The notes under the pieces are model-generated. The model was not told where the DNA came from. It saw only the letters and a list, made by a program, of their open reading frames with translations, and did no database searches. Shown here piece by piece: positions 1 through 17,173 of a stretch of 34,456 nt of DNA (within the stretch, counting starts at the first letter, position 1; every line of letters starts with the position of its first letter). This stretch comes from Pseudomonadota bacterium (GTDB lineage: Bacteria > Myxococcota_A > Polyangia > Haliangiales > SHYZ01). Position numbers and translations under genes: made by a program. The stretch lies in NCBI GenBank assembly GCA_043801535.1, contig JAZDLZ010000765.1:1-34456 (forward strand), in the 5' to 3' direction.

Positions 1-159
1 CCGCTGCCTAGCGCCATCCTGGAGGCCTCCAGCGAGGTCGACCGGGCAGGGGAGGCTGCCGCTACCGGGCAGGGCACGGAGGATGCCCTCATGGCGGCCA
101 TCTGGCGTCTCGAGCAGGCATGGCGGGCCTGGGGAGGCCCGCTGGCGAGGATCGCGTAA
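1..159 (+). CDS. 3' end of an upstream ORF (last 52 codons, function unknown)
   Basis: Frame 1 is open from the window edge to TAA at 157-159. Third codon positions are GC-rich like the neighbouring genes. No recognisable motif. Confidence 0.3.
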   Translation, partial: PLPSAILEASSEVDRAGEAAATGQGTEDALMAAIWRLEQAWRAWGGPLARIA

Positions 160-162
160 GAA

Positions 163-195
163 TTGCGTTCTCCGTCGAAGTGTGTAAAGTATACG
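163..195 (+). promoter_or_regulatory. Possible sigma-70-type promoter for the small-ORF/cas12/CRISPR operon
   Basis: TTGCGT (163-168) is followed 16 nt later by TAAAGT (185-190), in the only AT-richer gap (160-221) upstream of the operon. GGGAAGGG (206-213) precedes ATG 222. This is a by-eye match only and the host consensus is unknown. Confidence 0.2.
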
Positions 196-221
196 CATGC
201 TCGACGGGAAGGGCCTAAGAT

Positions 222-683
222 ATGGGGTATCAAGCCAAAATCCAATCGTCGGCCGTCTGCGACCAATCGGCCCTCGGTGGATGTGTGGGCGCGATTACAG
301 TTTTTCGGTGCAGAGAACTCGGATGTCAATTCCACATCAAACGCTGTACGGTCCATTCGGGAAAGCGAATAGGTAGCGCATTCGCGGCGCACGCAAAAAT
401 CGCCCACCCGCGCAAGTACCGGGCTCTGCGGACTCGACGGGCAGTGCGGATAGGTCAGCGCAACGCTCCGCGAGTGCCAGTGCCGCAGACCATGCATCAG
501 TGTCGACGATGCGGACTGTCGATCCGATACCCGAAGCTCAATCAGCACCTCTGGGATGCTCACGGGATAGCCGAGGAGGCACGCCTGGCGGTGACACACT
601 TTGTGTCGGAGTCGTCGGAGCAGACTGTGTCGACTACTCCGACGAAGACATCGCAGAGCTGCGACGACAGCGACCTCGAGTGA
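222..683 (+). CDS. Small Cys/His-rich (C2H2-like zinc-finger) protein with an acidic Ser/Thr-rich tail
   Basis: CRRCGLSIRYPKLNQHLWDAH fits C-x2-C-x11-H-x4-H. There is also an upstream Cys/His-rich stretch, FRCRELGCQFHIKRCTVH...AAHAKIAH. By hand count, GC3 is about 73% for 492-683 and about 60% for 222-491, so the start could be ATG 492 instead of ATG 222. The stop TGA 681-683 overlaps GTG 680 of the next ORF. Confidence 0.45.
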   Translation: MGYQAKIQSSAVCDQSALGGCVGAITVFRCRELGCQFHIKRCTVHSGKRIGSAFAAHAKIAHPRKYRALRTRRAVRIGQRNAPRVPVPQTMHQCRRCGLSIRYPKLNQHLWDAHGIAEEARLAVTHFVSESSEQTVSTTPTKTSQSCDDSDLE

Positions 684-958
684 GAGGCGATTGCGAAAGC
701 GGAGCCAGACCATGTCCGTGGGTGGGCTGCCGGTATCACCTCTACCTGCACGTCACTGCCGCCGGGGCACTGCGGATCGAGTACCCCGACCGCGACCCCG
801 ACGAGATACCAGAGACCTGTGTTCTCGACGTGGCCGAGCATGACTTCCTCACTTTCGACGACATCGGACGATTCCTCGGCGTGACCAGCGGCCGGATTCA
901 ACAGATTGAGGCGAGTGCGCTGCGGAAAATGAAACGAAAAATGAAGGAGCCACAATGA
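680..958 (+). CDS. Sigma-70 region-4-type helix-turn-helix DNA-binding protein with an N-terminal Cys/His cluster
   Basis: The C-terminus ETCVLDVAEHDFLTFDDIGRFLGVTSGRIQQIEASALRKMK matches the region 4.2 HTH pattern, preceded by CESGARPCPWVGCRYHL. A GTG 680 start is chosen because the longer 500-679 extension has only about 51% GC3. The stop TGA 956-958 overlaps the effector ATG 955 (ATGA). Confidence 0.6.
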   Translation: MRGDCESGARPCPWVGCRYHLYLHVTAAGALRIEYPDRDPDEIPETCVLDVAEHDFLTFDDIGRFLGVTSGRIQQIEASALRKMKRKMKEPQ

Positions 959-2790
959 TCGACGAACGAAGCAAACGAGTCTACGCCTATGGCTGTCGTG
1001 CTCCCATGGCAGGGAGCGAGGCGTTCGAGGCGCAGCTACGACTCGCGCACAATTACTACAATCGTTTGATCGAAATCGAAAGGACTCGACGGGAAAAGTA
1101 TCATGAATTGTGCGGTCGGTATCAGGAGGTCGTCGAGGTCGACGCGGCACTGACGGCGGTCAACGCGGCGCTCGACATGATCTATGGAGTAATCGCTGCC
1201 TCGAAAATGAAAGGACGCAGTCGGAAGGCTGTCGATCCGCAGAATACCGTCGAGGCTAAGCGACTCCAGCAACAACGGAGGTTTTTGTACGATCGACGGA
1301 AAAAGGCCGAGTCTGCGGCGAAGAAAAATCACCCGGAGCTGATGCTCGAGCTGGAGCAGATGCAGCTCCAGACTCGGATGTTCGTGAAGTCGGCAAGAGG
1401 AGAGTATTCCGCCAAAGGGCTTTACTGGGGAACCTATCTGATCATCGAGCAGGCATACGAGCTCGCGAAGAAATCACACGGACCGCCACATTTCCGTCGA
1501 TGGGACGGCACGGGACAAATCGCAGTGCAAATTCAGCATGGCAAGCCCGTCGAAGAAATCATTGGCGGTGCTGATGGCCGGCTGCAAATCGATGCTATTG
1601 ATTCGGCAGCATGGAGTGGCTCTCGCGGCGAGCGCCGGCGAGCGACTCGGACGATGGTCAGAATTCGTGCGCACAGCGATGACAAGAAGGATCCCGTCTG
1701 GGTGGAGCTGCCCGTTGTGTTGCATCGTCCGATGCCGGCGGGAGGTCGCATTTGGTGGGCGCGGTTGTGTCGCAAGCGTGTGGCCGGGACGTTTGAGTAC
1801 GAGCTTCAGATCACGGTGGATATCCCAATCCCGTCGGTGGAAGTCGATCCTCGAACGGCAGTCGGAGTCGATTTGGGATGGCGGCGCAGAGACGACGGAA
1901 TCCGTGTGCTGACCTGGCAGTGGCAAGATGGCCGGCGTGGGGAGCTACGCTGTGATACCATGACCGAGGCTACGATGGCTCATGCACAATCGTTGCAGTC
2001 GATCCGCGGCAAGAATCTCGATGCTATGCGTGCTGGCATGGTCGAGTGGATGCGTGGACATCCATTGCCCGAGTGGATGACGGAATCGACGGATACATTC
2101 GGGTTGTGGCGGTCTCCAGGAAGATTTGCAGCACTGGCGATCCGCTGGCGAAACCTGCGATTCGACGGAGATGCGGAGGGGTTCGATCTGCTCGAAGCAT
2201 GGCGCAAGCAGGACCGGCATCTTTGGGAGTGGCAATCTCACGAGGTGCAAAAGGCTATTCTTCGACGGAGAGAGCAGTATCGGGTTTGGGCACGGGGTAT
2301 CGTGAGACAGTCGTCTTTGATCGCCATCGAAGATTTCGATTTGCGCCAGATGGCGCGGCAGACTCCGCCGGAGGAGCCGGGGAAGTACGATGATCTGGCG
2401 CGTGCTCAGCGTATCGTGACAGCTCCGAGCACAGCACGCCAGGCGCTTGAGCAAGCGGCAGCGTCGGCAGGAGTGCCAGTGATCAAGGTGCCCTGCCCTG
2501 GGACGACGTACATCTGCCGGGAGTGCGGGTGTGCCTGCGAGTGGGATCAGGCGCGCGAGATCAGACATACCTGCGAGGGCTGCGGGCGAGAGTGGGACCA
2601 GGATGAGAACGCCGCGACGAATATTTTACGAGCGGGTCAGGGATACGTGGCATCAGGCAAGCTGCTCGCAGACCAGATCGCGAAGAAAAACAAAGCATTG
2701 CGAGGAGGGAGATTCCAGCGACGTGCTGCGGCAAAGGTAGAAGTGGTGATCGCTCGAAAAGCTCTCGACACGTCGAGTGAAATCGGATAG
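955..2790 (+). CDS. cas12: Miniature type V CRISPR effector (TnpB/Cas12-family RuvC nuclease, 611 aa); subtype unresolved (Cas12f/Cas12m-like size)
   Basis: RuvC-I is VGVDLGW (D306, nt 1870-1872). RuvC-II is SLIAIEDFD (E459, nt 2329-2331). RuvC-III is WDQDENAATNIL (D550, nt 2602-2604). A CxxC...CxxC zinc ribbon (YICRECGCACEW...HTCEGCGREW; C521/C524/C540/C543) sits between RuvC-II and RuvC-III. The N-terminus is TnpB-like (KRVYAYGCRAP...LRLAHNYYNRLIEIER). AAGGAG lies at 944-949. A CRISPR array starts 14 nt downstream. Confidence 0.85.
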   Translation: MIDERSKRVYAYGCRAPMAGSEAFEAQLRLAHNYYNRLIEIERTRREKYHELCGRYQEVVEVDAALTAVNAALDMIYGVIAASKMKGRSRKAVDPQNTVEAKRLQQQRRFLYDRRKKAESAAKKNHPELMLELEQMQLQTRMFVKSARGEYSAKGLYWGTYLIIEQAYELAKKSHGPPHFRRWDGTGQIAVQIQHGKPVEEIIGGADGRLQIDAIDSAAWSGSRGERRRATRTMVRIRAHSDDKKDPVWVELPVVLHRPMPAGGRIWWARLCRKRVAGTFEYELQITVDIPIPSVEVDPRTAVGVDLGWRRRDDGIRVLTWQWQDGRRGELRCDTMTEATMAHAQSLQSIRGKNLDAMRAGMVEWMRGHPLPEWMTESTDTFGLWRSPGRFAALAIRWRNLRFDGDAEGFDLLEAWRKQDRHLWEWQSHEVQKAILRRREQYRVWARGIVRQSSLIAIEDFDLRQMARQTPPEEPGKYDDLARAQRIVTAPSTARQALEQAAASAGVPVIKVPCPGTTYICRECGCACEWDQAREIRHTCEGCGREWDQDENAATNILRAGQGYVASGKLLADQIAKKNKALRGGRFQRRAAAKVEVVIARKALDTSSEIG

Positions 2791-2804
2791 ATAGAGAGTG
2801 CGCA

Positions 2805-3571
2805 GTAGCAAAGGCTGCTCGGAGCCTTCGTGTCCGAGACAGCGAGTAGCAAATCCGGCGGGGCCTGATATGCGTGTAGCAAAGGCTGCTCGGAGCCTTC
2901 GTGTCCGAGACGGTGTACCGGGCCGTATGCCGTGCGCTGGCCGACCGAGCGTAGCAAAGGCTGCTCGGAGCCTTCGTGTCCGAGACCTAGTTCCTTGTTC
3001 AATTCCGACGACGACGAAGGGGTAGCAAAGGCTGCTCGGAGCCTTCGTGTCCGAGACATATGCAATCCGTGCAGGACGATCGAGGTGAATCGTGTAGCAA
3101 AGGCTGCTCGGAGCCTTCGTGTCCGAGACGCAGCAACGGAGCGAGGCGTCGCGATCGCGCACACCAGTAGCAAAGGCTGCTCGGAGCCTTCGTGTCCGAG
3201 ACGCGAGCAACAGATCCGGCGGGGCCTGATATGCGTAGGTAGTAGCAAAGGCTGCTCGGAGCCTTCGTGTCCGAGACAGCGACCCGAAGACCGGGATGGT
3301 TTTCGACATCCCGACCGTAGCAAAGGCTGCTCGGAGCCTTCGTGTCCGAGACCGGTGCGCGAGTATCACGCATCGCCACCAGATGATGAGTAGCAAAGGC
3401 TGCTCGGAGCCTTCGTGTCCGAGACGGCATCAGCCACGAGGCCGCCCGCAAGCGATTCCAGGTAGCAAAGGCTGCTCGGAGCCTTGGTGTCCGAGACTGT
3501 GGTCGTTCCGCCGTCCGTCCATCCAAGCGGTCCCCGTAGCAAAGGCTGCTCGGAGCCTTCGTGTCCGAGAC
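2805..3571 (+). CRISPR. CRISPR array: 11 x 36-bp repeat GTAGCAAAGGCTGCTCGGAGCCTTCGTGTCCGAGAC with 10 spacers of 35-39 bp
   Basis: Repeats start at 2805, 2876, 2951, 3022, 3094, 3167, 3242, 3317, 3390, 3462 and 3536. Ten repeats are identical; repeat 10 has C25G (CCTTGGTGT). Spacer lengths are 35, 39, 35, 36, 37, 39, 39, 37, 36 and 38 nt. Flanking bases vary, so the repeat boundaries are exact. The + orientation is inferred from the position of the variant repeat and of a 9-nt remnant (GTCCGAGAC, 3582-3590) at the right end, and from co-orientation with cas12. Confidence 0.97.
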
Positions 3572-3630
3572 GGATGAGCACGTCCGAGACCCCGTCGAGA
3601 GTAGACCAAGCGGGGTGGTAGAGTACGACC

Positions 3631-4377
3631 ATGATTTCTTGCATTTGCTGCACATCTGCCTCCCGCGCATGGTGCCTTCCGCTCGCCATCCGCGCCTTCA
3701 GCCGCCAGACCTACGCAGCGTGGGACCGTGAGTTGGTCATCGTCACCGATGGCACCGACGCAGACCGAGACATCGTCGCTGCAATCGCCAGCGGTCATCC
3801 GGGCGTCGAGCACTATCACATCCCATCCAAGCCAGGCGCTACCCGACGGATCACCCTCGGAGAGAAACGCAACCTGGCCATCGTGCATGCCCGCGGCGAT
3901 TGGCTCTGCCATTGGGATGACGACGATTGGCATTCCCCCGACCGACTCACCCGGGCGATCAAGGAGCTGGCGTTGCAAGGAGCTCGAGCCGCTGGCATGA
4001 CCTCGTTGCTGTTCCACGAGCTCACGGGAGACCGGCGGACGTTCCGCTATCGCTACAGCGGCAAGCCTTACCTCGTGGGCGGAACCATGCTTTATCATCG
4101 CAATGACTGGCGGGACATCCGATTTCCCCGCAGGCAGGAGGGCGAGGATTCCGTCTTCGCCTTCGAGCTCTGTCGACGGGTAACCGTGGCCATCGTCGAC
4201 GACCTCAGTCACTACGTGGCGCTGCGGCACGGGAATAACACGTCGCATCGAGGGCAGACGAATCCTCGGCCGCCCAAGTGGGTGCAGTGGGAGGGCGATA
4301 TCCGGAGTATCATGGGGCAGGATCTCGACGAATACGAAAGGGCATTGCATGGGAGCCGCGAAAACCAAGAGCGATGA
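3631..4377 (+). CDS. Family 2 (GT-A fold) glycosyltransferase
   Basis: ISCICCTSASRAWCLPLAIRAFSRQTYAAWDRELVIVTDGTDAD resembles the GT2 N-terminal signature. An acidic HWDDDDW motif (DxD-like) is present. 248 aa. Confidence 0.65.
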   Translation: MISCICCTSASRAWCLPLAIRAFSRQTYAAWDRELVIVTDGTDADRDIVAAIASGHPGVEHYHIPSKPGATRRITLGEKRNLAIVHARGDWLCHWDDDDWHSPDRLTRAIKELALQGARAAGMTSLLFHELTGDRRTFRYRYSGKPYLVGGTMLYHRNDWRDIRFPRRQEGEDSVFAFELCRRVTVAIVDDLSHYVALRHGNNTSHRGQTNPRPPKWVQWEGDIRSIMGQDLDEYERALHGSRENQER

Positions 4378-5014
4378 GCGCAAGATTCGCATCGAGTACA
4401 TGCCACTGTCACAAGTCGTGCGAGCGCCGCGCAATCCGCGCTGGCATGCGGACAAGGACATTCAGGCGAGCATCGAGGCGTTTGGCTACGTCCAGCCAGC
4501 AATTCTCGATGAGAGAACGGGCAAGCTGGTGGCAGGCCACGGCAGACTGGATGCGTTGCTGGCCATGAAGCAGGAAGGCAAGCCGCCGCCTCCAGGAATC
4601 GCAGTCACTCCCGACGACTGGAAGCTCCCAGTCATTCGTGGCGTCTCGTTCCGCACGCAGGAGGAGGCCGAGGCCTTCTTGCTCGCCGACAATCAGACGA
4701 CTGTTTTAGGCGGGTGGCACGACGACAAGCTGGCAGCCATCCTCAAGGATCTCCAAGCGTCCGACCAGGCAATCATCGGATGGGCACAGGAAGAAGTTGA
4801 TGTTTTGCTGGGTGCGGACCTCGAGCTAGAAATTCCAACACTAGACGACCCATCACCCGACGATGGGTTGCGCGAGTACAAGTTTCGCGTTTCCGAGGAG
4901 GAGACAGCCACCGTCGATCGTGCGTTTGTCGCGCAACGCGGAAAGCGACGGGAAGCTGATGATGCCAGGCTATTCGTCGCCATCTGTCGGGCTTTTCTGA
5001 AACTGCCGGAATGA
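4349..5014 (+). CDS. ParB/Srx-fold (ParB-like nuclease domain) protein
   Basis: IRIEYMPLSQVVRAPRNPRWH ... KLVAGHGRLDAL matches ParB N-terminal domain motifs (NPR, GHxR). It overlaps the GT2 3' end by 29 nt. The start is uncertain (ATG 4400 is an alternative). Confidence 0.6.
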   Translation: MGAAKTKSDERKIRIEYMPLSQVVRAPRNPRWHADKDIQASIEAFGYVQPAILDERTGKLVAGHGRLDALLAMKQEGKPPPPGIAVTPDDWKLPVIRGVSFRTQEEAEAFLLADNQTTVLGGWHDDKLAAILKDLQASDQAIIGWAQEEVDVLLGADLELEIPTLDDPSPDDGLREYKFRVSEEETATVDRAFVAQRGKRREADDARLFVAICRAFLKLPE

Positions 5015-6555
5015 CTCCGATGGAAGCCGGCATCATTACGTTTGGTCATGCCAACAGTCACGGCAAGAATCAAGTCAAAAACGAGCTGGGGCAGGGCCCG
5101 CACATCGTGCGTCAGTGCTGCCTCGAGGCTGGTATTTCTGTCCACAATTTGCACGAGCGATGGCATCGGTGTGATGTCGTTATGGTCGGACTCTACTGGT
5201 GGGAGCATCTCTACGACCTGGTGCTCTGGCTCGCTGCGCATGGAATCGAGCCGGATCGAGAGAAGCGACGGAAGGCAGGCGGTCCGCTCGTATTCATCGG
5301 TGGACAACTGCCCAGCTACAACCCATCCACTGTGGCTGCTATCGCTGATCTGGTGTGCATCGGCGATGGCGAATCGGCTGCGCCAGCAGTGCTATCCCTG
5401 ATTCGCGCCGGCGCTCCTCCATCAGAGTGGGCAAGCGTGCCAGGCATCTACGTATCCGAGCTCGACAATTGCGCAGAGTGGCAGCATGTCGACGATGTCT
5501 CAGGCACGATTCGCTGGCCATTCTACAATTCGACGCTGGTCGAGCATGACAGCGGGGTCCATCAGAAGCTCGTCTTCGAGCGACGAATTGAGATAGCCCG
5601 TGGCTGTCGGCACAAGTGTGCCTACTGCGGAGTCGGGTGGACAAAACGCTACCGTGAGGTGTCGACCGCGGAAATCTGCGGGGCAGTCGCGAGCACGCCA
5701 GGGATGATCAAGGCCTTCGCGCCAGACCCTCTGGCGCATTCTGGCTGGGATGAAATCGACGCTACGTTTGTCGAGTATGACAAGAGCAACCAGGCACGGG
5801 ATATCTCGGCTCATACAATTCTGACCAAGGGATTCGGTCGTTCGAGGATTTACACCACTGGCATCGACGGGCTGTCCGAGAGACTTCGACGAGCAGTGAA
5901 CAAACGGCTGTCGCAAGATGAGCTTGTCGAGGTACTAGAGCGGACATCCGGGCATGGCGGACAACTCATGATCTACATGATTCTTGATTTGCCAGGCGAA
6001 ACAGAGGCTGACTATCGTGAGTGGTTCGCGTCCTTGTCGCGGGTGCAGGTCCGTACCCGGCCCCCGAGTGGTAGATTTGCTTCAGGCGACGAACGCGATT
6101 TCTACGTCGCTATGACGCTCACTGCGTTCAATCCGACGCCTCACACTCCATTGCAATGGGAAGGCATCGACATCCACAAGCAGTGCTACGATTGGTATCG
6201 ACAAGCATTGGACGTGGGACTCGTCGACAAGAGTCAGCGACGGCTCAAGCACAAGATACTCGGCCGTCCGCATGGAGGCGCTGCACGACTGCTCGAGGCG
6301 GCCGCCCTCCGCGGGGACAGAGAGCTCGGTCGGTTTGTCTTGCGAGTCGCTGCTGTTCGACATCGGTTCAAGACATCGTCGCAGGTTCTGACTGCCGCTG
6401 ACAGACTGGGCGTGGGCGAGGCCTTGCACAACACCGTGAGGCGTCATTCTCTCGACGAGACCTTGCCCTGGGAAAGACGAGTCCGCCCGCTGTTCGGGCG
6501 TGACACGCTGCAACGGGCGGCTCTCAAGTTCCGCAACATCGTCGGACAGCTATAG
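5011..6555 (+). CDS. Radical SAM enzyme with an N-terminal B12-binding-like domain
   Basis: IARGCRHKCAYCGVGW contains the CxxxCxxC 4Fe-4S motif. The N-terminal VFIGGQLPSYNP...VCIGDGESA resembles the Rossmann-like B12-binding domain of class B radical SAM enzymes. ATGA overlap with the previous ORF at 5011-5014. Confidence 0.7.
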   Translation: MTPMEAGIITFGHANSHGKNQVKNELGQGPHIVRQCCLEAGISVHNLHERWHRCDVVMVGLYWWEHLYDLVLWLAAHGIEPDREKRRKAGGPLVFIGGQLPSYNPSTVAAIADLVCIGDGESAAPAVLSLIRAGAPPSEWASVPGIYVSELDNCAEWQHVDDVSGTIRWPFYNSTLVEHDSGVHQKLVFERRIEIARGCRHKCAYCGVGWTKRYREVSTAEICGAVASTPGMIKAFAPDPLAHSGWDEIDATFVEYDKSNQARDISAHTILTKGFGRSRIYTTGIDGLSERLRRAVNKRLSQDELVEVLERTSGHGGQLMIYMILDLPGETEADYREWFASLSRVQVRTRPPSGRFASGDERDFYVAMTLTAFNPTPHTPLQWEGIDIHKQCYDWYRQALDVGLVDKSQRRLKHKILGRPHGGAARLLEAAALRGDRELGRFVLRVAAVRHRFKTSSQVLTAADRLGVGEALHNTVRRHSLDETLPWERRVRPLFGRDTLQRAALKFRNIVGQL

Positions 6556-11548: not shown

Positions 11549-11863
11549 ATGCCAATCAGCTCGTCGGAGATTGCTCAACGTGTGGGCGTCTCGGTCCGCT
11601 ACCTCAACAAGCTTGTCCGTTGCGGATTGGTGCAGCCGTCGAAACAGTCACGCAAGCAGGGTTCGCCTGCGGAATGGGCGGAAGAGGACGTGGCCAAGGT
11701 CGTGCTCGCCGTGCGCATCAAGCGGGTGTTGAATCGGTTTTCCAAGGTGCGTCTTGATGCTTCGGTGTTGGAAGATTTGGACGACCGAGCAATTGCAGTC
11801 GGGGAGCAGTTTCTTCGAGAGCTCGACGGTCAATCAAAGATAGTCATCCCACAGGAGTCATGA
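11549..11863 (+). CDS. MerR-type HTH protein
   Basis: ISSSEIAQRVGVSVRYLNKLVRCGLVQP fits the MerR N-terminal winged-HTH pattern. 104 aa. Confidence 0.5.
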   Translation: MPISSSEIAQRVGVSVRYLNKLVRCGLVQPSKQSRKQGSPAEWAEEDVAKVVLAVRIKRVLNRFSKVRLDASVLEDLDDRAIAVGEQFLRELDGQSKIVIPQES

Positions 11864-12840
11864 TGGTCATCGCATACGTCGGCAACTTCGAGGCTCGTAC
11901 TCCAAGTGGTGAGTTGTTCTCGACGGAATCTCACCTGTCCGCATCGCTCGAGCAACTCGGGCATACCGTCGTGCGGCTCCAGGAAAATCGTGTCACCGCA
12001 GAGCAGGTGGCGTTTCGCGTCCGCGAGTGCGCGGCGGATCTTTTTCTGTGGACGAAGACCGGGGAATGGCTGCGTGGCGACCGCGAGGAGATGCTGCGAG
12101 TCATCAAATGTCCAACGGTAGCATATCATCTGGATCTTTACGCTGGGCTCCCGCGGTCGGCTAACGTGGACAGTGAGCCATGGTGGCGGTGCAAGTACGT
12201 GTTCACTGCCGACGGCGGCAGCGATGACTTCTGGCGTGAGCATCGGATCAATCACTACTGGGCGCCACCAGGAGTCTACGGCAAGGAGTGCTATCTCGCA
12301 GAGCCGGGACCCGAGCGATACGATGTCATCTTCGTAGGCTCCGGGAAAAACGGATACCATCCGGAATGGCCATACCGCAAGCAGCTCCTCGACTGGCTAG
12401 CCAACACCTACGGAGAGCGATTCGTCCTCTTCGGGCGCGGCGGTGAGCTGGAGTGCGTGCGCGGGGCAGCGCTCAATCAACTCTACGCGAGCGCGAAGGT
12501 GGTCGTCGGAGATTCGCTGTGCCTAGGATTCCAGCACCGACGGTACTGGAGCGATCGGGTGCCAGAGACGCTCGGGCGGGGAGGCTTTCTCATCCATCCG
12601 GCAGTCTCGGGGCTCGAGCAGTTTTTCCGCAATCGTGAGCATCTGGTCACCTACGACTATGGCGATTTCGACGGACTCAAGCAGACGATCGACTACTACC
12701 TAGCTCACGACGAGGAGCGTGAGACTATCCGGTTAGTCGGTCACGAGGAAGTGAAGTCGCGGCACACTTACGCCAATCGTATGGCGTGGATGCTCGAGAC
12801 AGTGCGGCGGTCGGAGACCAGGGTCGACGTGATGCTATGA
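11860..12840 (+). CDS. CgeB-like / Glyco_trans_1_2-type glycosyltransferase
   Basis: VIFVGSGKNGYHPEWPYRKQLLDWL...LYASAKVVVGDS...RVPETLGRGGFLIHP...DYYLAHDEERETI...SRHTYANRM follows the CgeB-family C-terminal pattern. AGGAG lies at 11853-11857 and there is an ATGA overlap. Confidence 0.65.
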   Translation: MMVIAYVGNFEARTPSGELFSTESHLSASLEQLGHTVVRLQENRVTAEQVAFRVRECAADLFLWTKTGEWLRGDREEMLRVIKCPTVAYHLDLYAGLPRSANVDSEPWWRCKYVFTADGGSDDFWREHRINHYWAPPGVYGKECYLAEPGPERYDVIFVGSGKNGYHPEWPYRKQLLDWLANTYGERFVLFGRGGELECVRGAALNQLYASAKVVVGDSLCLGFQHRRYWSDRVPETLGRGGFLIHPAVSGLEQFFRNREHLVTYDYGDFDGLKQTIDYYLAHDEERETIRLVGHEEVKSRHTYANRMAWMLETVRRSETRVDVML

Positions 12841-13634
12841 GAGATTTTCGGCCGACATCAGCGAAGGCGGAATGGCATCTCACGTATCGTTGCACCTTGC
12901 GGTGCAATGGATGCAGTCGGGCTACGTGGCTGGCGAAGCCGCACACGGAGGACATGACGCTCGACGATGCCCGTGAATGGTGCAAGCAGGCCGACGAGAT
13001 TGGATGGAAGCGTTTTCAGCCCACGAAGGAGAACGCTCGAATCATCCTCATCGGTGGCGAGCCGACGGTGCATCCGGATTTCATGGAGTTCGTGCAGCTC
13101 GCTATGGAGTGGTCGGGCGCGTATGTCCAAGTCTATTCCAATGGGTGGTCAGCCCAGACAAGGGCTCTGCTCGAGCACGCCAGGATTCATCACAGCGCGT
13201 CGATCGAACGGAGTAACGCGAAGCCACGAGGTAGCGTGACTGGCCCAGAGTGGGCTGGCTGGCGGCTAGACATGTACGTCAGCCCAGCAGACGCTGGGGT
13301 ACCAAGTCCTCCGTGCTATGTCCATCCGTCGGAAATCTGCGGGCTCGGAATCGATCACGAAGGATATTCGATGTGTCCAATCGGAGCGTCGGTGCGGGCA
13401 TTGCTGGGATTACCGCGGACACGACGATTCGCCGATCTGTTCGACATCGACCTTGCCGCGCGCATGACCGCGGAGGAGTGCTCGCATTGCGGATACGAGT
13501 ATGCCAAGCGTGCGGCGTCCAATGAGCACAAGGAGAGATTTGCGGCTTATGTCGCGCAGTGTCCGACGATGCAGGGGTGTTTGATGTCTCCGACGTGGCA
13601 GTCGGTTTTCCAAGGACGTGAGGTCAAGAAATGA
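12837..13634 (+). CDS. Radical SAM enzyme (possible SPASM/twitch-like Cys-rich C-terminus)
   Basis: HLTYRCTLRCNGC contains CxxxCxxC, followed by IILIGGEPTVHPDF. The C-terminal cysteines are CYVHPSEICG...SMCP...CSHCG. ATGA overlap at 12837-12840. Confidence 0.75.
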   Translation: MRDFRPTSAKAEWHLTYRCTLRCNGCSRATWLAKPHTEDMTLDDAREWCKQADEIGWKRFQPTKENARIILIGGEPTVHPDFMEFVQLAMEWSGAYVQVYSNGWSAQTRALLEHARIHHSASIERSNAKPRGSVTGPEWAGWRLDMYVSPADAGVPSPPCYVHPSEICGLGIDHEGYSMCPIGASVRALLGLPRTRRFADLFDIDLAARMTAEECSHCGYEYAKRAASNEHKERFAAYVAQCPTMQGCLMSPTWQSVFQGREVKK

Positions 13635-14359
13635 AGCGCATCACAATGGCAGGATTCTCGACGATGATTCCAGACCATCGTGCCGACTGGGATGGATGGG
13701 CGGAATGGGAGCGGGTTCGCTTCGAGTCGATGGCGCACAACCTCATCAAAGATGATGTTCTCTACGACGTGGGCGCTGAGTACGGAGACATGTCAGCGAT
13801 TTACGCTCAGATGGCAGGCAGCCTGTGTCTCTTCGAGTCGGAACCGGCGGTGTGGCGCAATATTCGCCATGTCTGGGATGCTTCCGGGTTACAGCCTCCG
13901 CGAGCTTGTTACGTTGGTCTTGTCGGAGAGCAGACCACAGACCCGGTTGCACAGGACTTCGACGGGCGGATCCGTGCCGGCTGGCCAGAGTGCGCGTGGG
14001 TAGACAGTATTTGGCCAGATTGGACGTTTCGCTATTTGCATTACGCATCTCATGTAGCTTCGACGCCGCAGACTCGCCTTGATGACTGGGCGGATCGGTC
14101 GGGCATCTTACCGACAGTGATCACGATGGATATCGAGGGCGCAGAGCTACTGGCGTTGCGCGGTGCTAGCCGGCTGCTCGAGCAATACCATCCGATGGTG
14201 TACGTATCCATCCATCCCGATGCGATGGAGCGGGACTACCATCAGAGCGATGCCGATCTGCATGCGTACATGCGAGATCTGGGGTATGCCGGCACGCATC
14301 TAGGCACTGATCACGAGCAGCACTGGGCGTTCACCGCAGGTGGGAGGCCGCTCAGGTGA
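13631..14359 (+). CDS. FkbM-family SAM-dependent methyltransferase
   Basis: VLYDVGAEYGDMSAIYA...LFESEP and ITMDIEGAELLALRGASRLL...VYVSIHP match Methyltransf_21/FkbM motifs. ATGA overlap. Confidence 0.7.
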   Translation: MKRITMAGFSTMIPDHRADWDGWAEWERVRFESMAHNLIKDDVLYDVGAEYGDMSAIYAQMAGSLCLFESEPAVWRNIRHVWDASGLQPPRACYVGLVGEQTTDPVAQDFDGRIRAGWPECAWVDSIWPDWTFRYLHYASHVASTPQTRLDDWADRSGILPTVITMDIEGAELLALRGASRLLEQYHPMVYVSIHPDAMERDYHQSDADLHAYMRDLGYAGTHLGTDHEQHWAFTAGGRPLR

Positions 14360-16074
14360 CCCGAGTGCTCTGGCCATGGGCGGCCTGCAATCATTGGGAC
14401 CAGGCCATGCTGCGCGATTTGTTCGCCGGTCGTCTCTGGCCGATGGCAGAGCCTTTCGTCGATGAGATGGAGCCGACGCGAGGCGGCGAAGGCGCAGTGG
14501 TGGTCTGCTCCGGGGCGTTGCTGGCAGAGCGAGGAGATCAGGAGTTGCGCGCTTTGCTCGGGGTGTTGCCATGGGCGATTTTCGTCCACACCAGCGACGA
14601 AGTGATGCTGTTCGATTCGTCGAAGTTGGCTCGAGAAGCGCGGGTGAAGGTCTGGTGCCAGACACCTCGATTCGATCGTAATTACAGCGACCGCAAGCTG
14701 CTCATTGGATGGCCGCCTGCCACGCGGGATATCGTCGAGAGATTGCCACGGTTGCCGTTGGCAGATCGTCCGTTACTGTGGGCGTTCCAAGGTCAGAGCA
14801 ATCACGTTCATCGGCAGCGCATGGTCGACGTGTTGGGCAAGCGTAATGACGGGCGACTGGTCGTCACGGGGGGATTCGCTCAGGGCAAGCCGAGACCGGA
14901 ATACCTGGCCGATCTGGGGCAGGCTCGCATTGTGCCGTGTCCGTCGGGGCTGTGGACGCCAGACAGCTTCCGCATGGCCGAGGCGCTCGAGGCAGGCTGT
15001 TTGCCCTGCGTCGAACGCAGGTCTCCGCAGTGGAAGGGAGGCGGCAACTTTTGGCAGTTTGCGTTGAACACGCAACCAATGCCTTGCGTCAAGGACTGGA
15101 CCGAATTACCGCGGATCCTTGACGGATACCGAAGCAATCCTGTTGCGTTGCAGCGAGATGCCAATCGAGCTGCGGCATGGTGGCTGGGCTACAAGCGTCA
15201 GCTAGCGTGCAACTTGCTCGACGATGTCGAGACGCTATCTGGCAAGCCACCAGAGCCATTGCACCAGGTGACAGTGTTGATGCCGACCAGTTCCATACCG
15301 TCGCACCCATCCACTGCTTTTATCGAAGATGCGATTACCAGGCTGCGGGCATATCCAGAGATGGCCAATGCCGAGGTCATCATCATGGTCGACGGGTTGC
15401 ACGCCAGCCATCGTTTCCGATCTGCTGACTACGAGGAGTACAAGCGTCGGCTGATCGACCTCTGCTCATGGGATCCGAGATTCCGTGGTTGCCTGCCACT
15501 CGTGTTCGACGAGCACACGCATCAAGCCAACATGACGCGCCTGGCGCTCGAGCTTGTGCGGACTCCCCTCGTGTTTTTCCAGGAGCATGATACCTGGCCG
15601 TGTTGGGACATCGACTGGGTTGGCTTGAAGCGGGCATTCTGGGTTGGTCGTGGCGTGAACATGATCACGCTGCATATCGACCATCAAGTGCTCGACGAGC
15701 ACAAGTATCTCACGTTGGGTGACGTCGAAGACATCAACGGAGTGCCGTTGTTACGTCATTGCAAGTGGAGCCAGCGCCCGCATATGGCTAGTACGTCGTG
15801 GTATCGCGGAATCCTCGCTGAGTTTTTCGGCAGGAACGCGCGTACCATGATCGAAGACGTCATGTGGGGTATAGTTTCGACGAGAGTGCAGGCAGACAAG
15901 GCAGCGTGGGGGAGATTTGGGTTGTGGATGTATCACCCCGACGATTCTGTGCATGGTGTTTTGCGTAGTCAAACCAGAGATGGCCGAGCGGGCGAGGCAA
16001 AGGTTCCGCTCGTCATTGCCTACGACGGAATGCCTCCGGAATGTGCGCCTGTCCCGGGAGTCAAGCGATGGTAG
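14356..16074 (+). CDS. Two-domain putative glycosyltransferase (exostosin/GT47-like N-terminal half, GT-A-like C-terminal half)
   Basis: LLWAFQGQSNHVHRQRMV...ARIVPCPSGLWTPDSFRMAEALEAGCLPCV resembles the exostosin-type pattern. VTVLMPTSSIPSHPSTAFIEDAITRL...EVIIMVDG resembles a GT-A N-terminus. GTGA overlap. Confidence 0.5.
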   Translation: MTRVLWPWAACNHWDQAMLRDLFAGRLWPMAEPFVDEMEPTRGGEGAVVVCSGALLAERGDQELRALLGVLPWAIFVHTSDEVMLFDSSKLAREARVKVWCQTPRFDRNYSDRKLLIGWPPATRDIVERLPRLPLADRPLLWAFQGQSNHVHRQRMVDVLGKRNDGRLVVTGGFAQGKPRPEYLADLGQARIVPCPSGLWTPDSFRMAEALEAGCLPCVERRSPQWKGGGNFWQFALNTQPMPCVKDWTELPRILDGYRSNPVALQRDANRAAAWWLGYKRQLACNLLDDVETLSGKPPEPLHQVTVLMPTSSIPSHPSTAFIEDAITRLRAYPEMANAEVIIMVDGLHASHRFRSADYEEYKRRLIDLCSWDPRFRGCLPLVFDEHTHQANMTRLALELVRTPLVFFQEHDTWPCWDIDWVGLKRAFWVGRGVNMITLHIDHQVLDEHKYLTLGDVEDINGVPLLRHCKWSQRPHMASTSWYRGILAEFFGRNARTMIEDVMWGIVSTRVQADKAAWGRFGLWMYHPDDSVHGVLRSQTRDGRAGEAKVPLVIAYDGMPPECAPVPGVKRW

Positions 16075-16288
16075 CGGATCTGGCGCGGTGGGCGAAGGTA
16101 GCGACTGAGCCGTCGCCATGGACAAAACGGATAAATCCACTGCGACTTTCGGTATCGATCCGTTGACACGCAGCTTCGGACGGACTCGGACGGACGACCG
16201 AGCCGTCGGACATCGTGAGTGGCGCATGTCGTTACAAGCGGCCGGGGCTCGAGGGAATCAAAAAACGTCTACGGGAGGCTTTCCTTCG

Positions 16289-17173
16289 ATGAAGATCGTG
16301 TTGGTGTCGAATGACAATGGTCGCGGGTTGAGTCGAGACCTCGCCATCGTGTCAGACCTGGCACGTCGTGCGGGGCATTCCGTGCGTGCCGTCAATTTTA
16401 AAATCATCGATCCTGCGTTGCGCGGTGACTTAGTCATTTGTTTGGAAACAGCGCCCATGAAAGCGCTGGCGGTAGCGCTGGTGCGCTGGTGCGTGCCCAA
16501 TCCTGAATGGTGGCCACAGGCGATGCCGGTGCAGGCCTTCGACCGGATCCTGTGCAAAACCCACGAATCGTTGCGGTTATTCGAGGCTATCACTGACAAG
16601 GCTGAGCTAGTCGGATTCACCGCCCGAGACCGGTACATCGCAGACGTACCGCGAGAGCGCGCCTTCCTGCACGTCGCGGGCAAATCGATCATGAAGGGCA
16701 CGGATGCCATCCTCGCTGCCTGGAAGCAGTTCCATATCGATCAACCATTGACCATAGTCAGCTCGTCGAGATTCAAGGAATCAATCCCGGGCGTCAGATA
16801 CCTCGATTGGCTCGACGATGCAGCACTCAAATCAGAGCAAAATCGCAACCTCTTCTACCTGGCGCCCTCGCAGACCGAAGGCTACGGGCACTCTCTGCAC
16901 GAGGCGGCGTCGTGCGGGGCAGTCATTGCCCGCAGCGAATGGTCACCGATGGATGAGGTCCCTGGCGTGTCCATGCACGCGGAGGCAGGCCGGCCAATGC
17001 GGCTAGCTCGGACATGTCGCGTTTCGTCAGGTGCGATTCGAGATGCCGTCGAGAGCTGCCTAGCCATGGACGGCGGACAAATCGTCGCTCTGCGAGCCAA
17101 GACTCGTGAGAGCTACGTTCGAGAACGCGCCGCCTTCGAGTCTCGATTTCTCCACCTGCTAGCGACTATCTGA
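16289..17173 (+). CDS. GT-B fold (GT4/GT1-like) glycosyltransferase
   Basis: The MKIVLVSND start is preceded by GGGAGG (16274-16279). FLHVAGKSIMKGTD... and PSQTEGYGHSLHEAASCGAVI match the E-x7-E-type GT-B C-terminal motif. The longest ORF starts at 16118, but that extension has low GC3 (about 56% by hand count). Confidence 0.7.
   Translation: MKIVLVSNDNGRGLSRDLAIVSDLARRAGHSVRAVNFKIIDPALRGDLVICLETAPMKALAVALVRWCVPNPEWWPQAMPVQAFDRILCKTHESLRLFEAITDKAELVGFTARDRYIADVPRERAFLHVAGKSIMKGTDAILAAWKQFHIDQPLTIVSSSRFKESIPGVRYLDWLDDAALKSEQNRNLFYLAPSQTEGYGHSLHEAASCGAVIARSEWSPMDEVPGVSMHAEAGRPMRLARTCRVSSGAIRDAVESCLAMDGGQIVALRAKTRESYVRERAAFESRFLHLLATI

Follow-up and report, generated by a model that had tools for sequence, protein, structure and literature searches.

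A phage-borne Cas12m locus headed by a small helix-turn-helix gene: gene model, family and neighbourhood of ORF2

Contig JAZDLZ010000765.1, analysed here over a window of 34,456 nt that covers the whole stretch of DNA, begins with small open reading frames (ORFs) that run directly into cas12m, the gene of a CRISPR effector. The question raised by the locus is whether these ORFs encode regulators of the effector, its physical partners, or generic phage transcription factors that share its operon. All three readings were offered in a preliminary description of the DNA, which saw a chain of three genes: ORF1, with a C2H2-like zinc finger; ORF2, with a sigma-70 region 4-type helix-turn-helix (HTH); and the effector. 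The analysis presented here leaves one real small gene in the region, not two, and the three-gene model is wrong. ORF2, cas12m and a CRISPR array follow one another in this order and are tightly packed. The explanation that we favour, and consider rather probable, is that ORF2 is a generic phage regulator at the head of the transcription unit carrying the Cas12m-CRISPR cassette; the arrangement would be an ordinary operon and not a dedicated partnership.

Table 1. Features of the Cas12m region, with positions counted from the first letter of the window.
Feature	Position	Strand	Remarks
Gap upstream of ORF2 (~350 nt), presumed promoter/operator	160..508	+	position only
ORF1, 'C2H2-like' ORF, most likely no gene	222..683	+	153 aa, or 63 aa from ATG 492
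ORF2	509..958	+	149 aa (152 aa from GTG 500); four invariant Cys and a sigma region 4-like HTH
ORF2 core, N-terminal part	641..739	+	acidic helix DEDIAELRRQ, then RPRVRGDC-x6-C-PWVG-C-RYH
Sigma-70 region 4.2-type HTH of ORF2, recognition helix TSGRIQQIE	848..934	+	PF04545
Shine-Dalgarno AAGGAG (944-949), cas12m ATG (955-957), ORF2 stop TGA (956-958)	944..958	+	direct reading
cas12m, type V-M (V-U1) effector	955..2790	+	611 aa; RuvC D306/E459/D550; C-terminal zinc ribbon
CRISPR array	2805..3571	+	11 copies of 36-nt repeat GTAGCAAAGGCTGCTCGGAGCCTTCGTGTCCGAGAC; 10 spacers, 35-39 nt

Judged by sequence comparison, the effector of this phage is a type V-M Cas12m. Its product aligns over residues 10-562 with the protein of PDB entry 23vw_A, named 'CRISPR-associated DNA-binding protein Cas12m' (E=3e-82), and matches the Cas12m2 entries 8hio and 8hhl at E ~5e-38. 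The PADLOC model Cas12u1 is matched from end to end by residues 8-562 (4e-120), and the Pfam model Cas12f1-like_TNB is found in the product as well. Its zinc ribbon is intact, and its D306, E459 and D550 fall into invariant alignment columns. Only 14 nt (2791-2804) separate the cas12m stop from the array, too few to hold a separate leader there. As expected of type V-M, the array comes without cas1, cas2, cas4 and trans-activating CRISPR RNA (tracrRNA): PADLOC finds no Cas1, Cas2 or Cas4 among the 38 other ORFs of the window, and the best tracrRNA-like anti-repeat in the window matches at 20/36 positions, inside the range of 20-24 obtained from shuffled sequences. The locus resembles those of MmCas12m and GoCas12m (PMC11013384; PDB 8hio, 8hhl, 23vw) in the effector of about 600 aa, the D-E-D RuvC site, the C-terminal zinc ribbon and the co-oriented array of 36-nt repeats, with neither adaptation genes nor a tracrRNA-like anti-repeat. 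It differs from type V-M loci on chromosomes or plasmids in lying on a tailed phage; phage-borne cases have been reported (bioRxiv 10.64898/2026.09.14.751636) and are also present in IMG/VR. It differs from the other type V-M loci fetched here in that an overlapping sigma region 4-like HTH gene precedes cas12m.

Cas12m orthologues with D-E-D, H-D-D and N-D-D sites bind double-stranded DNA in a manner dependent on a protospacer-adjacent motif, without cleaving it; they require no tracrRNA and process their own CRISPR RNA (crRNA) precursor (PMC11013384). Since D-E-D orthologues bind without cutting, the intact triad is not evidence for a nuclease; it argues neither way, and the effector is best read, by analogy with its family, as a DNA-binding silencer. 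The argument that the intact triad makes a partnership with ORF2 speculative fails for the same reason.

ORF2 ends in a predicted DNA-binding domain, as had been proposed. The Pfam model PF04545 matches residues 117-145 of the 152-aa form (29 residues) with 28.4 bits, above the gathering score of 24.1 (E=1.2e-6). Sigma-A domain 4 chains in the PDB are matched at E=3e-4, and the sigma models of NCBIfam and PHROG match the same ~30 residues. The Sigma70_r2 model finds no match in ORF2, a protein of at most 149 aa in which region 4 is the only sigma region detected. As the likeness is confined to a region 4-like HTH, ORF2 is not a sigma factor. LTRERIRQIE..AL.KL, the consensus of the family, differs hardly at all from the helix by which primary sigma factors (domain 4, PF04545) recognise the -35 element; unlike a primary sigma factor, ORF2 has a Cys-rich module in front of this helix, its own copy reads TSGRIQQIE, and it lacks regions 1-3, so it cannot act alone as an initiation factor. 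The AlphaFold2 model of ORF2, built on an alignment of 91 sequences, has a mean predicted local distance difference test (pLDDT) score of 80.2, with residues 41-149 at 83-96. In Foldseek searches with this model only ~36 residues of the HTH align to sigma-A domain 4, at 2.3-2.8 Å; nothing in the PDB or BFVD is found at E<=0.001, and the Cys-rich part has no structural match there.

The family combines C-x6-C-x4-C...C with a recognition helix TRERIRQIE (window 509-958, loci L005-L011 and L064-L149). P56, R59, C62, R67, P68, C69, C74 and C104 are invariant in the 91 sequences, and H77 almost so; the N-terminal part of the core contains this histidine and three of the four invariant cysteines. 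The Cys block is a putative metal site, for zinc or an iron-sulfur cluster. All invariant columns of the family core, RPxxRxxC...RPCPWVGCRYHL...ETCxLDxA, are present in the window protein, which scores 146.9 bits with the core hidden Markov model (HMM). A profile search returns 9217 clusters at E<=1e-3 and 1356 at E<=1e-30 (50%-identity representatives). The family has no Pfam or PHROG model of its own, a literature search on the motif RPCPWV found no paper, and a tblastn search of phage records with ORF2 retrieves nothing but the HTH of a sigma factor from an Aeromonas phage. This family of phages and other mobile elements is very large and entirely uncharacterised, and its members are spread over phage genomes among unrelated neighbours. 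In one respect the window copy departs from it: the recognition helix (884-907, residues 126-133) reads TSGRIQQI and does not fit the family pattern TRER[IV]RQ[IV]. At the three changed positions the relatives have R (86/91), E (87/91) and R (87/91), each at least 94% conserved, and the turn residues are changed from GG to DF as well. No other such variant occurs among the 91 relatives. The divergent helix may reflect a DNA specificity of its own, decay, or a newly acquired role.

Whether ORF2 and Cas12m belong together was judged from two samples. One comprises 56 Cas12m loci on ~50 distinct contigs, with relatives of the effector at 26-42% identity, from IMG/VR, JGI/ENA metagenomes and GTDB genomes; the other comprises 93 loci of the ORF2 family (807 kb), at least 80 of them from IMG/VR. 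The ORF2-core HMM finds no match in any of the 56 Cas12m loci, and all-against-all clustering of these loci gives no conserved neighbour of any kind. Upstream of the other Cas12m genes lie helicases, an integrase, a portal-like protein, an XRE repressor and unknown genes; beside the closest effector relative (L012, 42% identity), the 2.2 kb upstream hold no relative of ORF2. Conversely, no Cas12m or TnpB is found in the 93 ORF2-family loci, even at E<=10. The seven nearest ORF2 homologues are on phage-like contigs without Cas12m, with SNF2 helicase, DNA methylases, tail genes and others as neighbours, and the genes downstream of family members are heterogeneous. The preliminary description had named two findings that would speak against a dedicated partnership, namely that homologues of the effector never stand beside the small ORFs and that these ORFs are common in the same place in CRISPR-less relatives of the phage. 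For ORF2 the samples speak for both: none of the Cas12m loci has a relative of it, and its relatives are common in phages without CRISPR. For this reason a generic phage transcription factor in the same operon fits best. The proposal that ORF2 is a physical partner of the effector gains no support. ORF2 may regulate cas12m expression as a side effect of regulating itself. An HTH gene as a regular upstream neighbour of Cas12m was considered and dropped: one of the ten upstream ORFs scanned is a clear HTH above the Pfam cut-off (locus L037), so a regulator joined to Cas12m is not a general architecture. The upstream ORF of locus L004 gives sub-threshold HTH matches only.

The junction itself is as it had been described. 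The overlaps of GTG 680-682 with TGA 681-683 and of ATG 955-957 with TGA 956-958, the AAGGAG at 944-949 and the peptides quoted are all read directly in the DNA. AAGGAG lies within the 3' end of ORF2, 5 nt upstream of the cas12m ATG, and its Shine-Dalgarno match of 6 nt ties with the longest at the 36 gene starts of the window that were scanned; the overlap of ORF2 and cas12m is ATGA. Overlaps of 4 nt between stop and start codons occur at 8 of 36 gene junctions of this phage, so that of ORF2 and cas12m is not special, and it reflects compaction of the genome rather than partnership. The ATGA overlap, the Shine-Dalgarno sequence inside ORF2 and the short distance from cas12m to the array nonetheless make it very likely that one small DNA-binding protein with a sigma region 4-like HTH is co-expressed with the effector. 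Of the two co-expressed nucleic-acid-binding proteins proposed at the outset, ORF2 therefore stands and the other does not, as ORF1 is probably no gene.

The start of ORF2 has to be moved upstream. The NCBI annotation of this contig calls a protein of 149 aa (P0001) from ATG 509, named 'sigma factor-like helix-turn-helix DNA-binding protein'. When the 92-aa form of ORF2 is compared with 5.8 billion proteins, ten homologues of 101-160 aa are returned in addition to P0001. Conservation in the family begins at RPRVRGDC, nt 671, three codons ahead of GTG 680. In an alignment of 11 sequences R58, P59, R62 and C65 (numbered from the start at 500) are invariant; in the 91-member alignment the P, second R and C of RPxxR..C are still invariant and the first R is conserved to at least 90%. 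GTG 680, where ORF2 had been thought to start by coupling to the ORF1 stop, cuts into this invariant motif and is rejected on that ground. Just before the motif, DEDIAELRRQ (nt 641-670) resembles DEDLDAL and DEDLEEF of relatives, and AlphaFold2 models these residues (45-54) as a helix with pLDDT ~89, which likewise contradicts a start at 680. Homology and model together indicate that the ORF2 frame is translated from at least ~nt 641. As GTG 500 and ATG 509 are the only canonical in-frame starts, one of these would be used. Residues 1-40 are poorly conserved and predicted to be disordered. In most family members the core is C-terminal and is preceded by an extension that varies, with a median of 65 aa ahead of the first Cys of the core; the 149-aa product is typical of the family.

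Base composition had been brought forward in favour of the chained gene model. The hand counts of GC content at third codon positions (GC3) are reproduced: the ORF1 frame gives 0.72 over 492-683 and the ORF2 frame 0.50 over 500-679. The codon score points the same way (0.034 per codon for 492-680 in the ORF1 frame, -0.197 for 509-679 in the ORF2 frame). However, the core at 680-739, which is proven by homology, itself scores -0.27 per codon; the GC3 of the homology-proven segment 638-739 is 0.56. Because the proven core looks non-coding, codon and GC3 statistics cannot decide the frame here. They were discarded as arbiter, and the support that they had lent to the gene model goes with them.

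ORF1 is most likely no gene, but a chance open frame over non-coding DNA and an alternative frame of the ORF2 N-terminus. It has no match in Pfam, PHROG or NCBIfam, and the profile search that had been called for finds neither a zinc-finger nor any other family, with no zinc-finger model of Pfam matching at E<=1. Among the 5.8 billion proteins it has no homologue, itself included, and since there is no self-entry in the collection, ORF1 is evidently uncalled in the NCBI annotation of the contig. Its spacing, C-x2-C-x11-H-x4-H, does not agree with the canonical C2H2 spacing, C-x2-4-C-x12-H-x3-5-H, and of the 328 stop-to-stop ORFs in the window 5 contain the pattern, as do 2.2% of shuffled ORF1 sequences. 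With a motif at chance level and neither homologue nor family, the description of 222-683 as a zinc-finger gene is not upheld. Its codon score is negative both at 222-491 (-0.11 per codon) and in the Cys/His part, 492-560 (-0.08), and nt 509-683 overlap the homology-supported ORF2 frame. None of the candidate starts at 492, 500, 509 and 680 has a Shine-Dalgarno sequence, as is true of many real genes of the window.

The events at the locus may then be pictured as follows. A promoter in 160-508 would drive ORF2, cas12m and the array as one transcript. Cas12m, if it behaves as published for its family, would process the array into crRNAs and silence matching DNA by binding without cutting; the silenced DNA is probably in competing mobile elements. 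ORF2 would act as a phage regulator on DNA, probably at its own promoter too, and would incidentally set the levels of Cas12m and crRNA. It would not be a dedicated Cas12m subunit; the cassette may have landed behind a generic regulator gene or been captured beside it.

Several observations weigh against this reading. The upstream gene stops at 157-159, and 160-508 shows no coding signal in any forward frame, yet a consensus sigma-70 scan and searches for repeats and motifs find no promoter or operator in it. The simple consensus scan for promoters and terminators over 1-4000 gives nothing upstream of ORF2; 160-508 has no Rfam match; and operator-like repeats, or motifs common to 160-508 and the rest of the window, amount to 11-12-mers at chance level. 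The single transcript and the autoregulation are therefore steps that we infer. No close relative of the phage turns up when 25 kb are compared by megablast with 50,697 phage records, so that an ORF2 older than the cassette at this position is conjectural. The codon statistics for 509-679 favour the frame of ORF1, and the start of ORF2 at 500 or 509 is putative. The departure of the recognition helix at three positions could mean an altered, non-generic function. Finally, the label 'transcription regulator' is suggested by the HTH, in a family without a characterised member.

An alternative is that ORF2 has been recruited to repress or activate specifically the cas12m-CRISPR operon, Aca-like, with its operator in 160-508 and no other targets in the phage, keeping the dosage of Cas12m safe. 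ORF2 comes first in the unit with cas12m packed closely behind it, the upstream gap is unusually long for so compact a genome, and a recognition helix unique among 91 relatives would suit an operator of its own. In at least one more Cas12m locus (L037/L038) an HTH gene, of an unrelated, XRE type, lies directly upstream. We nevertheless consider a dedicated regulator unlikely: the gap contains no operator-type repeat or palindrome and no motif common to other intergenic regions, a clear HTH precedes Cas12m in only one of ten cases, and in the loci fetched the relatives of ORF2 are never linked to Cas12m. Far less probable still is a functional partnership, in which the sigma region 4-like ORF2 binds Cas12m, or RNA polymerase at Cas12m sites, so that the polymerase is recruited, blocked or redirected as with dCas12f-sigmaE. 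The idea draws on the fact that Cas12m is a programmable DNA binder and not a cutter (PMC11013384), on the precedent of Cas12f/TnpB relatives that work with a sigma factor (PMC13472631, PMC10691335), on the overlap of the two genes, and on the loss from the ORF2 helix of three near-invariant residues of the DNA-contact type, as if DNA targeting had been delegated. It is opposed by the lack of co-occurrence in either sample and beside the closest Cas12m relative, by the absence from ORF2 of sigma region 2 or an extra domain, by a Cas12m with no extra domain relative to the solved structures (aligned residues 10-562), and by the routine nature of ATGA overlaps in this genome. A co-opted ORF2, serving as a mimic of sigma domain 4 that crRNA-guided Cas12m places at chosen sites on competitor or host DNA, where it would capture, block or redirect the host RNA polymerase, is just as improbable. 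The loss of the three helix residues would agree with it.

The remaining alternatives concern the gene model. If the three-gene model were right after all, ORF1 (from ATG 492 or 222) would be a real zinc-finger ORFan, and ORF2 would start at GTG 680 without its N-terminal helix and RPR. The codon score of the ORF1 frame at 492-680 ranks at the 5th percentile among true coding windows and exceeds that of all 263 open windows offset by +1, a score as low as that of the ORF2 frame at 509-679 occurs in 0 of 1248 coding windows, and the GC3 difference and the GTGA overlap agree with the model. It is very unlikely all the same, as the resemblance to the ORF2 family extends upstream past 680, into a segment modelled as a confident helix, the score is negative for the indisputable core 680-739 and also for the Cys/His part of ORF1, ORF1 has neither homologue nor family, and no Shine-Dalgarno sequence precedes 492 or 680. 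A split gene would reconcile the codon statistics, which follow the ORF1 frame to ~620, with the homology, which follows the ORF2 frame from ~640: ORF1 and ORF2 would be one gene broken by a frameshift at ~560-640, through an assembly indel or a pseudogenising mutation, and its intact form would carry an N-terminal CxxC...H finger. CxxC is indeed present in the N-terminal extensions of 19 of 150 family representatives, and the extension of P0034, FCRRCAKALEHGIPENPRWRGH, can be set beside QCRRCGLSIRYPKLNQHLWDAH of ORF1. The comparison of ORF1 with these extensions is, however, not significant (best BLAST E=1.8 among 161 sequences); a phmmer match to P0028 at E=0.016 in the same 161-sequence set is driven by Arg-rich low complexity; the core HMM gives ORF1 3.2 bits, which 43 of 2000 shuffled sequences reach; and uninterrupted ORF2 from 509 already has the usual length of the family. 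We regard a split gene as slightly more improbable than three genes. A programmed -1 frameshift from ORF1 into ORF2 was also considered and rejected, as direct reading of 560-680 gives no X XXY YYZ heptamer; a candidate frameshift hairpin at 605-645 was discarded as well (z=-1.64; 15 of 200 shuffled sequences fold at least as well).

Aca proteins are stand-alone HTH autoregulators of anti-CRISPR operons; they belong to other HTH families, and the acr gene usually lies upstream of aca. The generic regulator favoured here resembles them as a small HTH gene packed with counter-defence or competition cargo in a phage, from a family with varied neighbours. It differs in the four invariant cysteines and sigma region 4.2-type recognition helix of its family, and the operator here is only presumed. 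A likeness also exists to the dCas12f-sigmaE or Sigma-TnpB systems of Bacteroidota, in which a compact DNA binder of the TnpB/Cas12 lineage stands in an operon with a DNA-binding region of the sigma-70 family (PMC13472631, PMC10691335). In those systems a RuvC-truncated dCas12f is paired with a complete extracytoplasmic function (ECF) sigma factor bearing an extra C-terminal domain, the linkage is conserved in >60 genomes, and the guides match host promoters (PMC13472631, PMC10691335). The present locus has neither a dead effector, nor a complete ECF sigma factor, nor a conserved linkage: the RuvC triad is complete, the HTH is region 4-like only, the linkage is seen in one contig, and the context is a phage. 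The two are alike only superficially. A partnership, if true, would mean that RNA-guided transcription control through a sigma module had arisen a second time, independently. With ORF2 read as a generic regulator, the locus is another phage-borne type V-M Cas12m with an unrelated phage regulator in front, and its value is mainly one of annotation: the gene model is corrected to one gene starting upstream of 680, and the effector is reclassified as a probable DNA-binding silencer, not a nuclease. The large uncharacterised ORF2 family, with its sigma-like recognition helix, deserves study of its own.

In one locus of that family (L110), a CRISPR-like signal at 4097-4681 was rejected; it is a coding 15-nt tandem repeat of ~26 or more units that encodes a pentapeptide repeat. 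The ORF with this tandem repeat lies just upstream of an ORF2-family gene.

Within the CRISPR array of the window, spacers 1 (2841-2875) and 6 (3203-3241) have a 23-nt core in common, ATCCGGCGGGGCCTGATATGCGT; their flanks have diverged, which would fit acquisition from two variants of a single target. This spacer core, the only one searched, has no exact match in IMG/VR, and the spacers have no self-matches within the window. Past the last repeat, in the region 3572-3630, a partial repeat end, GTCCGAGAC, recurs at 3582-3590.

The window as a whole is that of a myovirus-like phage, with genes for large terminase, portal, head morphogenesis, major head protein, tail sheath, tape measure, baseplate and fibres. 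In a September 2026 preprint the Cas12m of a myxophage is described as the first in a bacteriophage (bioRxiv 10.64898/2026.09.14.751636). Relatives of Cas12m are found on about ten viral contigs of IMG/VR (L054-L062, 5-185 kb), which means that carriage by phages is not rare, and it looks commoner than reported. Straight after the array and before the terminase, 3631-6555 holds a glycosyltransferase-like gene, a ParB-like nuclease/partition gene (phrog_620, 1e-31) and an ORF of 514 aa with no match in PHROG or PADLOC. Inside the structural module, between the head morphogenesis and major head protein genes, 11860-17173 holds glycosyltransferase-like, QueE-like radical-SAM, methyltransferase and unknown genes. 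One ORF of the window matches the PADLOC models of viperin (pVip) at 7.7e-11, and another matches MTase_II.

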